From Alphaproteobacteria bacterium (GTDB taxonomy: Bacteria > Pseudomonadota > Alphaproteobacteria > UBA9655): DNA of 64,000 bases. This document shows, one piece after another, positions 23,633 through 34,078 of this stretch. The notes below the pieces were generated by a model. That model was not told the DNA's origin, did not search any database, and was given only the letters and a program-made list of their open reading frames with translations. The translations under genes and the position numbers were made by a program. Location: positions 37,543 through 101,542 of the forward strand of contig JAIEOZ010000074.1 in NCBI GenBank assembly GCA_019750035.1, in the 5' to 3' direction. The first letter of the stretch is position 1. Every line of letters begins with the position of its first letter.

Positions 23633-23755
23633 TTATTTGTTGGTTAATTTTGTGTAAGTAGAATGGACAACATCAAGAAAAGCCCATATTGTGTTTTCTA
23701 TTCTGTCTAATCCTAAAACTGTTAAACCTATTATTGCTAAAATTAAGAATATCAT
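23633..23755 (-). CDS. 40-aa hydrophobic peptide (possible small membrane toxin-like peptide)
   Basis: Own translation: MIFLILAIIGLTVLGLDRIENTIWAFLDVVHSTYTKLTNK. Strong RBS TAGGAG. Cassette promoter directly upstream. Confidence 0.45.
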   Translation of the reverse strand: MIFLILAIIGLTVLGLDRIENTIWAFLDVVHSTYTKLTNK

Positions 23756-23790
23756 TTTTTATCTCCTAGTTAATTTATGTATATACTTTT

Positions 23791-23824
23791 ATTATTGCAG
23801 GAATAATGCAAAACACAATAGCAA
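23791..23824 (-). promoter_or_regulatory. cassette promoter box
   Basis: Minus strand reads TTGCTATTGTGTTTTGCATTATT.., with -35 TTGTGT, N16, -10 AATAAT. TCGATATC at 23854-23861. Confidence 0.6.
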
Positions 23825-23981
23825 AACTAATTTAATTTCATTTATTTATAAAGTCGATATCATTGGTTAATTAAAATAATTTGTATTTGTATTTTTGTGA
23901 AAATATTTTCACTTGTTTTTTAATATCATTCAATTGCAAGACAAAAAAAAGACTTCGCTAGGAAGTCTCTTGTGTTGTTTC

Positions 23982-24209
23982 TTATTTATCTTGGATATAT
24001 GCAAATCTGAGATATTCTTTAAGTTCTTCAAGGTCATTATTTGTAATTTTGTTGTATTCGTCTGTATATAAATTTCTGAATTCTTCAGGCATGTCAGACT
24101 TTATGAAAGGTAAGTAATAACCATCAATTACTGCTTTAGGATTCCTCCATTCTTCAATATCATCTCTATTGATGCTTGGATAAACAATTTCTTCTAATAT
24201 TTTATTCAT
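23982..24209 (-). CDS. hypothetical protein
   Basis: 75-aa acidic ORF. Confidence 0.5.
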   Translation of the reverse strand: MNKILEEIVYPSINRDDIEEWRNPKAVIDGYYLPFIKSDMPEEFRNLYTDEYNKITNNDLEELKEYLRFAYIQDK

Positions 24210-24226
24210 AAATTTTTTCCTTTGTT

Positions 24227-24496
24227 TTACATTGTGTTTGGATTTATCGCATCTTCTTTTGAAGACTCAATAAATTTACGTTTTCCAGGTGTGGTGTCTT
24301 CTTGGTACATCTCAATAGCAATTTGTATGCAGTCTAATTTTTCCAAACCTACTTGTCTGAACAAGTGATAAATTTTTGTGAACTGCTCTAAAAGATTTTT
24401 CTGAAGAACCTCTTCAATGACTTCATTTTTATTTTGTGGTGATTGAAGTATTTTTTTAAGTTCTTTTGTAGATTTATTTAATGTATGTTTTCTCAT
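24227..24496 (-). CDS. hypothetical protein
   Basis: 89-aa ORF preceded by a GGAG-type RBS. Confidence 0.5.
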   Translation of the reverse strand: MRKHTLNKSTKELKKILQSPQNKNEVIEEVLQKNLLEQFTKIYHLFRQVGLEKLDCIQIAIEMYQEDTTPGKRKFIESSKEDAINPNTM

Positions 24497-24516
24497 ATTT
24501 TTCTCCTTGGTTATTT

Positions 24517-24834
24517 TTATATTTTATTTTTATTATTTTCTTTGATGCCTTTTGGTGGCAACTTCATATCTAGTTTGGCTGTAAAAATTGCCTTGTAAAT
24601 CAATTTGTAGTGTTCGTAGTCTTCTGTCAGCTTCAACCTGGTTGGCACTCCCCTAGCAATAGCTTCAAGAACAGAATCAAGGTTGAACATTTTTAGTTCT
24701 ACTTTAAAGTTTTCACAATGCAATCTTGTGGTGTGATAAAAGTCAGGTTCAGGGAAGTTCTTATTAATATGCTTCTGAGTGAAGATATTTTTCAAGGTGC
24801 TTAAAGTGACATATTTTTCTTTTTTCATGGTCAT
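24517..24834 (-). CDS. hypothetical protein
   Basis: 105-aa ORF. Confidence 0.5.
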   Translation of the reverse strand: MTMKKEKYVTLSTLKNIFTQKHINKNFPEPDFYHTTRLHCENFKVELKMFNLDSVLEAIARGVPTRLKLTEDYEHYKLIYKAIFTAKLDMKLPPKGIKENNKNKI

Positions 24835-24852
24835 TCCTTATTTTTCTTATTA

Positions 24853-25182
24853 TTAAAATGAGTTATAGATTATGGTTTTCTTGACTTCTAAGCCGTGTAA
24901 TTTTTCATAATAAGCACGAATTTCTTTTAATTCAGGATTGAAGATAGCAAAGCTAGTTCTACGGTGTGCATCAAGGATATTGTCTTTTCTTGTTACTTCT
25001 TCAAGATACTTTTTGACTAATTTTTTATCATTCAACTCTTCTGCACTCCATAGTGCTTCTAATGATTCTTTGAAACTGGCATAGTGTTTAGTCTGTGTTT
25101 CGTTAATTGTTGGGTCAAGGTGCAATGTGACTGTAAGGCTATCGTTTTCTATTTCAACTGAGCTACTTGTAATTATTTTCAT
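24853..25182 (-). CDS. hypothetical protein
   Basis: Start moved to MKIITSS (25182), preceded by AAAGGAG. Confidence 0.5.
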   Translation of the reverse strand: MKIITSSSVEIENDSLTVTLHLDPTINETQTKHYASFKESLEALWSAEELNDKKLVKKYLEEVTRKDNILDAHRRTSFAIFNPELKEIRAYYEKLHGLEVKKTIIYNSF

Positions 25183-25231
25183 GGAATCTCCTTTATTATT
25201 ATTTTTCATGAAAAGGGGTTTCGCCCTTTTG

Positions 25232-25465
25232 TTAATTTAATCCGTTTGTTTTTGCTTCTTCTAGGATTGCAGAGTATTTATCAACTGTGCCATCTGCTCT
25301 TTGCCATACTGACACTGTGTACCAATATCCATCCTCACAAGCTGAAGTTTCTCTAAAGTTTTTTCTACCTTCTGCATTGATTACAACATCAATGATTTCA
25401 AAACCTGCATATCCTGAATTTCCAAAAGTTTTATTTATTTTTATTTTTACTGATTGAGTTTTCAT
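25232..25465 (-). CDS. hypothetical protein
   Basis: 77 aa. Single-gene cassette with promoter at 25493-25526. Confidence 0.55.
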   Translation of the reverse strand: MKTQSVKIKINKTFGNSGYAGFEIIDVVINAEGRKNFRETSACEDGYWYTVSVWQRADGTVDKYSAILEEAKTNGLN

Positions 25466-32334: not shown

Positions 32335-32639
32335 TTCATTTCCTTTATTACTAATATAATTTTAGTAAATTCAATGAGGAAAACAATAATTAAAATAAAT
32401 CTCGATATCTATTGCTAAATAATTTTTTGTTGCTAAACTGATTTTTGCTAGTTGTTCATTTCCTGATAATTAGTTTATTCTTTTAGTTGAGAGTCAAAGA
32501 AACCACTTCTGTAAAAAGTTGTGGTTTCTTTTTTTGTATTTTTGTTGACTCACTAAACAGTTTATTGAAAATTTTTGTTGATGGAATACTTTTAGTACGC
32601 AACAATCACTTTATTAAGTAATCAAAAAAGGTGATTGAA

Positions 32640-32888
32640 ATGATTGAATTCCAAAGCCGTGTTGGTCGTCCATCTTCAGGAGTAGATAGAAAAGTTCAAC
32701 TTGCTCTTGCTCAGAAGAAGAAAAGAGAAAACGATAAGAAGGAAGGTTTAAAGCCTGTTAATGTTTCAGTTTCACATGAGTCAAAACTTTACTTTATGGC
32801 TTTGTGTAACATTCACAATATGACTCAAAGAGAACTTTTAGAAGCTTTGGTTGATATTGCAATGAAGAATGGTTCACTACTAAAATAA
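32640..32888 (+). CDS. ribbon-helix-helix type DNA-binding protein
   Basis: Start at ATG 32640, preceded by AAAGGTGA. GRPSSG..KPVNVSVSHESKLYFMALCNIHNMTQRELLEALV fits an RHH fold. Confidence 0.5.
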   Translation: MIEFQSRVGRPSSGVDRKVQLALAQKKKRENDKKEGLKPVNVSVSHESKLYFMALCNIHNMTQRELLEALVDIAMKNGSLLK

Positions 32889-33023
32889 AAAGCCCCTTTT
32901 GGGGCTTTTTATCTATCAGGATACATTTTATTTTTTTTCTGCTCTACCACTGAGCTACAACATATTTCTATGTTGGCAGGATTTGAACTTGCGACCAAAA
33001 AGGATTTGCTGTAATTATCCTAT
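32886..33023 (-). ncRNA. candidate circularly permuted tRNA-like (YrlA/Y-RNA-like) small RNA
   Basis: Cassette-type promoter at 33030-33063 and terminator at 32892-32905. Core 32939-32996 reads GGTC-GCAAG-TTCAAAT-CCTGC (T arm), then CAACATA-GAAA-TATGTTG (7-bp acceptor-like helix capped by a GAAA loop), then TA-GCTC-AGTGGTA-GAGC (D arm). The ends can pair: U5/A8 plus AGGAUA (33016-33021) with UAUCCU (32918-32923). Confidence 0.5.
32892..32905. terminator. bidirectional terminator (RHH gene on plus, tRNA-like RNA on minus)
   Basis: GCCCC-tttt-GGGGC with A and T runs on both sides. Confidence 0.7.
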
Positions 33024-33029
33024 TTATTA

Positions 33030-33063
33030 ACTATACGAAATTAAACAATAAACACAATAGAAA
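33030..33063 (-). promoter_or_regulatory. cassette promoter box driving the tRNA-like RNA
   Basis: TTTCTATTGTGTTTATTGTTTAATTTCG followed by -10 TATAGT. -35 TTGTGT at 33052-33057. N16 spacer. Confidence 0.55.
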
Positions 33064-33085
33064 TTCATTTTTATTTTTATTAATC

Positions 33086-33592
33086 TTACTTCTTGAATTC
33101 ACTTGTTGCCACATTCATTACTATTAGATATGAAATATAACTAATTGTTGCAAGAACTTTATTTGCATAAAATGCATCTATCTTTGATAAATCTAAAAGT
33201 TCTTTAATATCAATATCATAAACAAATCTTTTTCCTTCAAATTCTGTTAAATCTTTATATAAGAAACTAACAACTATTTTTAATGGATTTATTTTGTCTT
33301 CTATGAATTCTGCAATTGTTGAAGAAGTTATTTTTCTTCTTTCACAATCAGAGATATAGAAGTGTGAAACCATTTTAATATCTTTCCCATAAACTTTGAA
33401 AGTTTGTTTAATTTTCGCATCAGTCATGGCATGTTCTCTTTCTGTCATGTCATGTTGCCAATAATCACTTACAACCTTCAATTCATTTTTTATTACAGGA
33501 TATTGTTCTGAAAATCTCTTAACAAGTCCTTGAATAACTTCTTTTTTATTATTCGCTGTAACCTTTTCTTTTTTACTTAACCATGCAAACAT
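33086..33592 (-). CDS. hypothetical protein
   Basis: 168 aa. TAATG overlap with the upstream gene. Confidence 0.55.
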   Translation of the reverse strand: MFAWLSKKEKVTANNKKEVIQGLVKRFSEQYPVIKNELKVVSDYWQHDMTEREHAMTDAKIKQTFKVYGKDIKMVSHFYISDCERRKITSSTIAEFIEDKINPLKIVVSFLYKDLTEFEGKRFVYDIDIKELLDLSKIDAFYANKVLATISYISYLIVMNVATSEFKK

Positions 33593-33960
33593 TATTCATT
33601 CCCCTTTCTTTCTTCGTTTGCAATAATTTGTGTTGCTTCATATATTCTCATAGGTTTTTTTGAAATCAAAGAATTTACTTTGTCTTGTAATCTTTTTGAA
33701 GCATATAGAAGAGTAAGTGGTTCTTGAAATCCATTTGCCTGATACATGGCAGCATTTACAACATCTGCATTGTCTCTCATAGATTTAGAACAGTATTTCA
33801 AATTTTCATAATCTCTTCTACACGCAATTTCACAAACAAAATCTACATCTCTGAAATACTTAAATCTTGATTTCTTAAAATGCTCTCCACCAACAAAACT
33901 TTTACTTTCTAAATCGTTTATTGCACTATCTGAATCTTCATACCAAAAATTATTAGCCAT
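33592..33960 (-). CDS. hypothetical protein (weak DUF4116-like motif)
   Basis: 122 aa. KYCSKSMRDNADVVNAAM..LLYASKRLQDK. Cassette promoter at 33991-34024. Confidence 0.55.
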   Translation of the reverse strand: MANNFWYEDSDSAINDLESKSFVGGEHFKKSRFKYFRDVDFVCEIACRRDYENLKYCSKSMRDNADVVNAAMYQANGFQEPLTLLYASKRLQDKVNSLISKKPMRIYEATQIIANEERKGNE

Positions 33961-33990
33961 TTTTATTCTCCTGTTGTTCTTATATTATTA

Positions 33991-34024
33991 AGAATACGAA
34001 AAATAATGCAAAACACAATAGCAA
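33991..34024 (-). promoter_or_regulatory. cassette promoter box
   Basis: TTGCTATTGTGTTTTGCATTATTTTTCG followed by -10 TATTCT. TCGATATC at 34034-34041. Confidence 0.65.
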
Positions 34025-34058
34025 GTAATGAATTCGATATCATTGGTTAGAAATAAAA

Positions 34059-34078
34059 AAGGACCCAAACGAGTCCTT
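34059..34078 (-). terminator. GGACTC-family cassette terminator (variant)
   Basis: AAGGAC-N8-GTCCTT. Confidence 0.6.

Follow-up and report, generated by a model that had tools for sequence, protein, structure and literature searches.

A repeated promoter-terminator module heads orphan-gene cassettes beside the putative transfer origin of a low-GC integrative conjugative element

The leading regions of conjugative elements hold genes that decide the success of transfer, and knowledge of them comes almost entirely from enterobacterial plasmids. The closest described system is the CUP regulon of the IncN plasmids. As described in PMC5371602 and PMC6289460, both of which cite Delver & Belogurov 1997, it comprises operons in the same orientation that are each headed by a conserved repeat with a promoter and an ArdK site, and it has undergone insertions, deletions and CUP-mediated recombination. 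In the IncW plasmid R388, ArdK controls five leading-region promoters that have a common repressor site, formed by TTGACA direct repeats which overlap or adjoin the -35 element (PMC9723621), and several promoters carry StbA sites (TTGCATCAT; PMC3098194). A transcriptional overshoot has been described for plasmid entry (PMC3937220). Here we describe an array of comparable design in a 64,000-nucleotide stretch of contig JAIEOZ010000074.1 (assembly GCA_019750035.1), hereafter the window, most of which is an integrative conjugative element (ICE) of low GC content. It offers a sequence-defined example from an ICE family of freshwater Betaproteobacteria, found in a Burkholderiaceae metagenome-assembled genome (MAG) and in Aquitalea pelogenes.

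As in CUP/ArdK-type systems, several operons that share one orientation and lie beside the presumed origin of transfer (oriT) were found to begin with a promoter-containing repeat. The repeat contains a 26-nt box, TTGCTATTGTGTTTTGCATTATTTTT, which is present in 11 copies at no more than three mismatches, all on the minus strand, and was absent from 100 shuffled sequences. Two degenerate boxes, at 33038-33063 (eight mismatches) and 14706-14731 (ten mismatches), retain the CTATTGTGTTT core, and each of the 11 strong and two degenerate boxes sits 40-50 nt upstream of a ribosome-binding site (RBS) and ATG (Table 1). The initial annotation had listed 13 near-identical boxes of one orientation and had placed the array at 23633-34078. 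All 13 exist, with the listed coordinates offset by 8 nt, and all share the minus strand, but only 11 are near-identical and two are degenerate. The limits of the array had to be revised, since it begins at 23.8 kb and extends as far as 50.8 kb. The coupling-protein operon at 14.7 kb is also headed by a variant of the box.

Two recurrent families of terminator accompany the boxes, with hairpins that consist of a perfect GC-rich stem and have a T-run behind them. The GGACTC family, AAGGACTC-N4-GAGTCCTT, has six copies at exactly the positions originally assigned to them, and a consensus scan scored them as intrinsic terminators; the copy at 34059 has one mismatch, and that at 40451 lies between convergent genes. 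The second family (GCCACT), also found by consensus scan, has the form AAAGCCACT-N4/5-AGTGGCTTT. Repeat analysis showed that the repeated unit is longer than the box: it begins with the hairpin, extends as far as the start codon and measures 95-131 nt. The description of the locus as a modular array therefore stands, each unit having its own promoter and terminator. Like the CUP regulon of IncN, the array consists of repeat-headed operons of one orientation in a leading or maintenance region, with an stb-type operon adjoining. It differs in having about twice as many modules (11-13), a bipartite signal (GATATC plus the box), a terminator for each unit, a chromosomal betaproteobacterial ICE as its carrier and a cargo made up of orphans throughout. 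Furthermore, no KorA/ArdK-type protein was recognised in a Pfam scan of nearly all open reading frames (ORFs) between 13 and 62 kb, the small ORFs at 1-13 kb lying outside the scan, and a megablast search with positions 23000-35000, which tests near-identity only, found nothing in a collection of 72,556 plasmid records. The array thus appears to be a CUP/ArdK-type design built from unrelated parts, in an uncharacterised ICE family. Repeated promoter-operator heads of this type would have arisen again, with added insulating terminators that would make the cassettes exchangeable.

The GC content of the window is ~30% up to ~62 kb and 45% thereafter, and tRNA-Met and rpoD lie within this 45% right end. 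The low-GC part encodes a TrwC-type relaxase-helicase of 1296 aa (PF08751, PF13604, PF13245 and PF18335 in a Pfam scan), a TrwB-type coupling protein of 815 aa (10905-13352; PF10412 and PF02534), a ParA-like ATPase and a DUF5906 primase/helicase-like protein. The N-terminal TrwC domain, the C-terminal RecD-like helicase and the TrwB-type coupling protein together place the system in the MOBF (TrwC-type) class. A protein of the junction region is matched residue for residue on a Burkholderiaceae MAG contig (GCA_019745005.1), where it is preceded by rpsU, yqeY, dnaG and rpoD. Since the transfer genes are of low GC and the host junction is found in this Burkholderiaceae MAG, the window represents a ~30% GC, 61-kb ICE in a betaproteobacterial chromosome. 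Relatives were recovered via protein searches, as pattern scans with the box gave chance matches only, and they comprise a handful of loci. Relaxase identity to the window is 96% for locus L030, 74% for the Aquitalea pelogenes element (L026/L041, relaxase P0003), which is carried by GCA_041914625.1, and 46% for L032, and an exact look-up of the window relaxase found no match.

For the anatomy of the promoters, 29 box copies from the window and its relatives were aligned and a consensus was drawn from the 24 copies with at most six mismatches. The module reads terminator of the preceding unit, short A/T-rich stretch, GATATC(G/C)A, 9 nt, TTGCTATTGTGTTTTGCaTTATTTtT, 2 nt, TAnnnT and ~20 nt ending in ATAACTAAAAGGAAAAtAAAATG, with a strong RBS closing the module after a leader of about 20 nt. 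GATATC(G/C)A stands 15 nt from the box, TTGC-TATTGTGT-TTTGCATTATTTTT, but 35 nt from it at the par-like operon. The prefix TCGATATC, noted before the box in the initial annotation, was confirmed in that 12 copies of GATATC(G/C)A were counted where 1.6 would be expected, and every copy is on the minus strand. A TAnnnT hexamer is found in one register, 2 nt past every box (TAAGAT, TAATAT, TATTAT, TATACT, TAAAAT and TATTCT), and because of this fixed register we take it to be the -10 element. TTGTGT inside the box is probably a weak -35 with a 16-nt spacer. Its distance to GATATCGA is 23 nt, the same as that of TTGACA in the box-less promoter at 13725; it aligns column for column with TTGACT in the orthologous promoter of a YrlA-like RNA in L044-L047; and in a manual right-justified alignment it lines up with TTGACT of the box found in L032. 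TTGCTA was rejected as the -35, since its 22 nt to the fixed -10 is too far, and TTGCAT with downstream A/T-rich hexamers gave no fixed register, so that TTGTGT-16-TAnnnT was preferred. The sigma-54, CRP and IHF consensus sequences, compared by eye, did not fit the box. Since the -35 and -10 are assigned to TTGTGT and TAnnnT, the invariant bases outside the hexamers (TTGC upstream and TTTGC-TTATTT in the spacer) appear to lie beyond what sigma-70 recognition explains.

In orthologous promoters of the window and L041/L043, 267 of 286 box positions are equal (93%). Identity is lower on both sides, at 62% over the preceding 40 nt and 78% between the box and the ATG, which agrees with the earlier observation that conservation exceeds the needs of sigma-70. 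Coding DNA of the window and L026 is about 73% identical. Inside the modules, the -10, the linker from GATATC to the box and the leader have diverged and the box has been kept. Since these parts drifted while the box did not, the pattern argues for a sequence-specific reader of the box over plain duplication or conversion. It is unlikely, in our estimation, that the module is simply a strong constitutive promoter that has no dedicated regulator and no early programme, was copied along with the cassettes and has been kept uniform by conversion or exchange. Such a promoter would be in keeping with the frequent mosaic exchange among the elements, with the duplication of the module as a 95-131-nt unit and with the lack of any regulator found in the Pfam scans. 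However, conversion would homogenise the whole module, and only the box stays at 93%; the conserved spacer bases are not required for recognition by the polymerase; and L032 has swapped in a different repeated box with a clear, operator-like inverted repeat over its -35.

This L032 box, GTGTCAATTTTGTTGACTATTACTTTGCATTT, is present in five copies (L032:1292-6948) in the same place relative to GATATC and oriT, and its inverted repeat, GTCAA-N5-TTGAC, lies over a canonical -35. L031 carries another variant, TAACTATTGTGTTTTAC. These variant boxes are what co-evolving operator-repressor pairs would look like. The box itself is present 11 times within 20 kb of the Aquitalea element, seven times in L043, eight times in L044 and five times in L030. 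An exact scan with a 22-mer of the box across the GTDB representatives (one genome per species, 185,579 genomes), JGI metagenomes and IMG/VR found no multi-copy occurrence. All three collections held single, context-less matches only, so the box is not a host-wide promoter consensus, a possibility that had been raised at the outset. These isolated matches have no flanking TTGC or GATATC and were judged to be due to chance.

The GATATC sequence appears to be a second, older and more widely conserved element of the promoters of this family, separate from the box, because it is also found at the box-less transfer-region promoters (10900 and 13720) and is kept in L032 despite the changed box. Each of the 14 sites in the element precedes a start codon on the minus strand by 69-99 nt. 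Coding DNA, which makes up 88% of the 61-kb element, contains no site (P about 2e-13). The sole other GATATC of the window is in the host rpoD. The distance from GATATC to the -35 is fixed at 23 nt, or is 43-44 nt, and at the par-like operon the sequence stands 20 nt further upstream, which equals two helical turns. It is most likely that GATATC is the site of a second, family-wide factor. This bears on the proposal that the promoters depend on an activator or on an element-encoded specificity factor, where GATATC, centred near -60 (or, with two more helical turns in between, near -80 at the par-like operon), would recruit a class-I-type activator. The array would then become active in donors or when transfer is induced, instead of being de-repressed on entry. 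The poor -35 (TTGTGT), the fixed spacing of GATATC and its occurrence at the transfer promoters and in L032 would all suit such a mechanism. We nevertheless think it improbable, since no sigma-like or activator-like protein was recognised among the scanned ORFs, the orientation of the genes towards oriT and their position next to it fit expression on entry, and the known analogues are controlled by repressors (PMC9723621, PMC5371602).

More speculatively, GATATC may be a methylation-sensitive site, as it is palindromic, occurs at promoters only and is missing from the 54 kb of coding DNA in the element. This could be combined with other features into a wider proposal, to which as a whole we give little credence. 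The module would be part of a platform for gene capture and expression, where any ORF or non-coding RNA (ncRNA) landing between a head and a tail joins a transient entry regulon. GATATC would be read as a methylation sensor together with the orphan methylase of the element, so that every cassette is expressed a single time from DNA that arrives un- or hemimethylated. Novel anti-defence proteins would be among the cargo, as would a tRNA-mimic Y-RNA serving as a decoy against tRNA-targeting defences.

The position of the array within the element was read from the candidate oriT. The TCGATTAGTTCTT block (20882-20894), which would be the nic region, is intergenic, lies upstream of the relaxase operon and is invariant in six elements whose relaxase identity goes down to 54%. 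An inverted repeat precedes it in each lineage, and the difference between GAACCC-GCA-GGGTTC in L028 and GAACAC-GCA-GTGTTC in the window is a compensated change. In R388-type origins, an inverted repeat is found 5' of a conserved nic region. Since the repeat stands 5' of TCGATTAGTTCTT on the plus strand, as it does in those origins, the higher coordinates would enter the recipient first and the relaxase gene last. The array would then be part of the leading (first-transferred) region of the element. The oriT, the relaxase and the ParA-type operon adjoin the array, the relaxase operon being on the opposite side of oriT, and of the 53 genes from 20.8 to 52 kb, 44 are encoded by the minus strand, so that they face oriT and have the transferred strand (T-strand) as template. 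This is the arrangement reported for leading-region genes (PMC11541004). The suggestion that the array occupies the place where plasmids keep their anti-defence and establishment genes therefore fits the gene content around it, with the side of entry deduced as above.

A TrwC-type relaxase and a ParA-like ATPase operon beside oriT on the leading side are features shared with R388 (IncW, MOBF), and this operon is comparable to stb, which MOBF/MOBP plasmids have (PMC3098194). Unlike in R388, the par-like operon is transcribed towards oriT and has a ribbon-helix-helix (RHH) partner instead of StbA, and the TTGACA-N4-TTGACA arrangement has its counterpart here in the loose hexamers TTGCTA, TTGTGT and TTGCAT. 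The locus also differs from the leading-region anti-defence islands (Samuel et al. 2024), as no anti-restriction, anti-CRISPR, SSB or PsiB gene was recognised among the scanned ORFs and its promoter modules are of the ordinary duplex type and not Frpo hairpins. Promoters of the single-strand type are common in leading regions (PMC11541004). Such promoters, or priming sites (Frpo/ssi-like), would work on the T-strand as it arrives, ahead of complementary synthesis, and would agree with the presumed T-strand being the template of the genes. We consider it very unlikely that the modules are of this kind. In plus-strand single-stranded DNA (ssDNA) folds of four modules, only the short terminator hairpin was paired, and the box and the -10 were unpaired, so that no double-stranded mimic of the -35 and -10 would form. 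The early regions of large lytic phages (T4 early promoters, the SPO1 host-takeover module) likewise have small orphan genes in short units with conserved strong promoters and terminators, and are expressed immediately on entry. The present locus differs from these in belonging to a conjugative element with a relaxase and coupling protein and in having no phage genes, and megablast of the array against a phage collection gave no match.

Taking the anatomy, conservation and location together, we think it rather likely that the array is a co-regulated entry or establishment regulon of 11 to 13 insulated units, controlled by a single element-encoded protein that binds the box. The host sigma-70 polymerase would read TTGTGT, as a weak -35, and TAnnnT, and the invariant bases flanking TTGTGT would most likely be the operator of this one DNA-binding protein. 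On arrival in a regulator-free cell all units would fire together, and the accumulating regulator would then shut them down. Units and genes would be gained, lost and moved by recombination between elements, leaving a variable cargo on a conserved scaffold. With 11-13 promoter modules such a regulon could be read straight from the sequence, and the box and GATATC together provide a search key for the cargo of the whole family.

The best candidate for the regulator, though a tentative one, is F15, an RHH protein encoded within the array (Table 1). It is the most conserved protein common to the window, L041 and L043 (83% and 77%); its RHH fold is indicated by Pfam RepB-RCR_reg and a weak ParG match; and its N-terminal arm, RVGRPSSGVDRKVQLA-AQKKKR, is invariant except at one position. 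Two further leads on a regulator were discarded. The 118-aa protein of the par-like operon was considered as a StbA-like regulator, but it is acidic and gave no PDB match. The sequence TTTTGTTGAY, found upstream of the RHH gene, was considered as a dispersed operator, but a scan that allowed one mismatch in this AT-rich DNA gave 60 matches against 44 expected, without promoter association, and 2 of 100 shuffles reached 60, so that it was uninformative.

Several points weigh against a box-binding repressor and a programme of entry. TTGTGT agrees with the -35 consensus at only three of six positions and the spacer is 16 nt, which means that what the promoter needs may be an activator instead of a repressor. 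No clear dyad is seen in the box, only loose direct TTG-hexamers, and its operator geometry is therefore not readable. Conversion among gene copies, or exchange from one element to another, could account for part of the identity among the boxes in place of protein binding. The transcription starts, the promoter strength and the timing are all deduced from the DNA, and the nicked strand is assigned by analogy. As to the regulator, the F15 gene has no box upstream, and the L031-L033 loci end short of the F15 region. No KorA/ArdK-type or other helix-turn-helix (HTH) regulator had a Pfam match among the scanned ORFs, a scan that small divergent HTH proteins could escape. The 58-aa RHH protein beside ParA is unlikely to be the box binder, as L026 shares the box but has a different beta-strand in this protein. 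Finally, structure prediction gave little on the cargo: single-sequence AlphaFold models of the acidic 140-aa and 187-aa proteins were poor, with predicted local distance difference test (pLDDT) scores of 59.5 and 38.1, respectively, and Foldseek searches of both models against the PDB found no match at E <= 0.001.

Gene-order comparison showed that the content between boxes differs among relatives and that the order is not invariant, as had been anticipated for an array with cassette turnover. In the family-level map of loci, the conserved scaffold comprises, from distal to oriT-proximal, the methylase, a rep-like gene, F9-F13, F5, the RHH gene F15, F6, F16, the par-like operon, oriT and the relaxase, and the variable content sits between boxes. 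Compared with L030, whose backbone DNA is 95% identical, the blocks 30868-30353, 30119-28215, 25187-24518 and 24227-23968 are found in the window only, and 27697-26333 is a replaced block. L044 equals L043 plus an insertion of 1.9 kb, which brings in three genes with one box and is placed exactly between the GGACTC hairpin and a stop codon. The gene for F35 (187 aa) is found at three array positions: in the window it comes second in its cassette, in Aquitalea it forms a single-gene cassette across the RHH gene, and in L047 it is located behind a different gene. The units would be exchangeable by recombination because they have the 95-131-nt head in common and their tails are drawn from a small set of terminators. 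The idea that the boxes serve as recombination points was upheld in part, since some breakpoints fall at the terminator/box module (28215 in the window and the right junction of the L044 insertion), but many others are at stop codons, RBS regions and gene interiors.

These comparisons also bear on whether the array could be an integron-like, site-specific cassette system with the hairpin and box as recombination site. Integron arrays have same-orientation, variable cassettes with repeated separators, and the present locus resembles them in these respects. It is extremely unlikely to be one, since no integrase-family match was found in any scanned ORF and no attC-type sites are present, the hairpins are terminators, each cassette has its own promoter and terminator, and the breakpoints are heterogeneous, as listed above. 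Two further signs of exchange were seen in the window. The ParA-like gene (22146-22982, minus strand) is 40% identical to that of L030, where its neighbours are 95-100% identical, and 87% identical to that of L028; it represents an allelic replacement within an otherwise near-identical backbone. An 84-nt segment is duplicated within the array (Table 1) as an internal recombination scar, by which two different genes share a C-terminus.

Table 1. Coordinates of the modules and other features of the window (putative promoter elements as assigned in the text)
Feature	Position	Strand	Remarks
Box, 1 mismatch	50822-50847	-	Heads 128/300/176-aa operon
Box, 3 mismatches	39737-39762	-	Heads 63/125/676-aa operon (F43-F11-F12)
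Box, 1 mismatch	37029-37054	-	Abuts GCCACT terminator; heads 407-aa lipoprotein gene
Box, exact	33999-34024	-	Heads 122/168-aa cassette
Degenerate box, 8 mismatches	33038-33063	-	Putative -35 TTGTGT and -10 TATAGT; candidate promoter of YrlA-like RNA
Decayed module (GATATCGA and degenerate box)	32339-32410	-	Upstream of 65-aa ORF 32137-32334
Box	31834-31859	-	Heads 123/171/141-aa cassette
Box	30370-30395	-	Heads 107/187-aa cassette
Box, exact	29301-29326	-	Heads single 351-aa membrane-protein cassette; cassette not in L030 or L041
Box	28127-28152	-	Heads 113/187/321-aa cassette
Box	26058-26083	-	Heads single acidic 140-aa cassette
Box, exact	25501-25526	-	Heads 77/109/103/89/75-aa cassette
Box	23799-23824	-	Heads operon of 40-aa peptide, 118-aa protein, RHH 58 aa and ParA-like 278 aa (23757-22146)
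Degenerate box variant, TGACTATTGTGTTTAC...	14706-14731	-	Heads operon running into coupling-protein gene
GGACTC terminators	25562-25581, 28189-28208, 29362-29381, 30429-30448, 34059-34078, 40451-40470	-	
GCCACT terminators	37054-37075, 35337-35360, 35743-35765, about 41232-41255	-	
GATATC sites (n=14)	10900, 13720, 14744, 23856, 25538 (25538-25543), 26094, 28165, 29338, 30407, 32404, 34036, 39786, 50860, 52038	-	
Candidate oriT core	20869-20894	+	GAACAC-GCA-GTGTTC inverted repeat, then family-invariant TCGATTAGTTCTT (presumed nic region)
TrwC-type relaxase-helicase (MOBF-like)	16545-20435	-	107-aa accessory gene before it at 20445-20768
F15, ParG-like RHH, 82 aa	32640-32888	+	Inside array, opposite strand; own canonical promoter and terminator
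YrlA-like (Y RNA-like, tRNA-mimic) ncRNA cassette	32914-33022	-	Terminator hairpin ends about 32890
84-nt duplicated segment	29960-30043 and 30886-30969	-	99% identical; gene 3' end and next RBS
Orphan N6 DNA methylase (N6_Mtase)	43660-44496	-	Distal leading region; outside 23633-34078

The genes between the boxes had been described as unrelated small orphans, several of them acidic or membrane-associated, and this was borne out. Essentially no matches were found in Pfam (about 60 proteins) or PHROGs (20 cargo proteins), several of the cargo proteins have an acidic pI of 4.4-4.7, and membrane spans are predicted in some. The orphan N6 DNA methylase is the only recognisable anti-defence candidate, and no Ard, Acr, SSB or PsiB protein was recognised with Pfam or PHROGs among the scanned ORFs. 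An anti-defence role of the cargo is thus put forward as a hypothesis. The ~25 orphan proteins per element, together with the tRNA-like RNA, make up a candidate list for anti-defence and establishment functions. The most conserved leading-region proteins after the RHH protein are predicted lipoproteins or membrane proteins (34853-35278, plus strand; 35771-36994 and 34083-34691, minus strand), one of which is of the Rick_17kDa_Anti/glycine-zipper type in relatives. These proteins may act at the cell surface or in entry exclusion.

One unit of the array encodes an RNA in place of proteins. This ~110-nt RNA matches the Rfam family YrlA (RF02553) over its full length, with E = 2.4e-9 when 1.4 kb was searched and 8e-8 when 49 kb was searched, at a score of 48.1 bits that is below the Rfam gathering score of 69. 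It has a T-arm/D-arm tRNA-like module and a long closing stem, and is probably driven by the degenerate box at 33063. YrlA RNAs mimic tRNA (PMC4201824). The window RNA shares with them the full-length match and the tRNA-like module, and differs in its score, in being carried as a promoter-terminator cassette of an ICE, and in that no rsr was seen, the Rsr/Ro60 (TROVE) domain having no match in any scanned window protein. The RNA is almost invariant in L044-L047 and absent from the Aquitalea element.

Some further features of the element and its relatives were noted. The same element family sits in Aquitalea pelogenes, which is a high-GC host. The GTDB representative of this species is evidently without the element, as the exact box pattern is absent there. 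In the window, a second TraG/TrwB-like protein of 787 aa with a weak TraG-D_C match is encoded at 4045-6408 (minus strand), in addition to the coupling protein. A Phd/YefM-ParE toxin-antitoxin pair (15129-15721, minus strand; Pfam names taken from the L030/L026 homologues) is located just downstream of the relaxase operon, and a Type III restriction-modification pair (55320-59789, minus strand; res 871 aa, mod 616 aa) is found near the right end of the element.

Other observations concern the surroundings of oriT. The divergent promoter of the oriT-adjacent 92-aa gene (21029-21056, plus strand; TATTGACTTTATCTGTTAATTTCGTAATAT) has the chassis of the box promoters (TATTG...TTTCG-TAATAT) without TTTGCATTA. 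The GC-richer 440-nt stretch at 31900-32340 was considered as a structured RNA or ssDNA element and set aside, as its folding z was only about -2.3 and it had no Rfam match. A GC-richer element of ~160 nt occurs in opposite orientations on either side of oriT, at 31932-32091 (plus strand) and 15793-15951 (inverted), with 75% identity between the two. Fragments of it are found at 61063-61106, near the right end, and at 27070-27104, in the array, and a copy is also present at the edge of L026.

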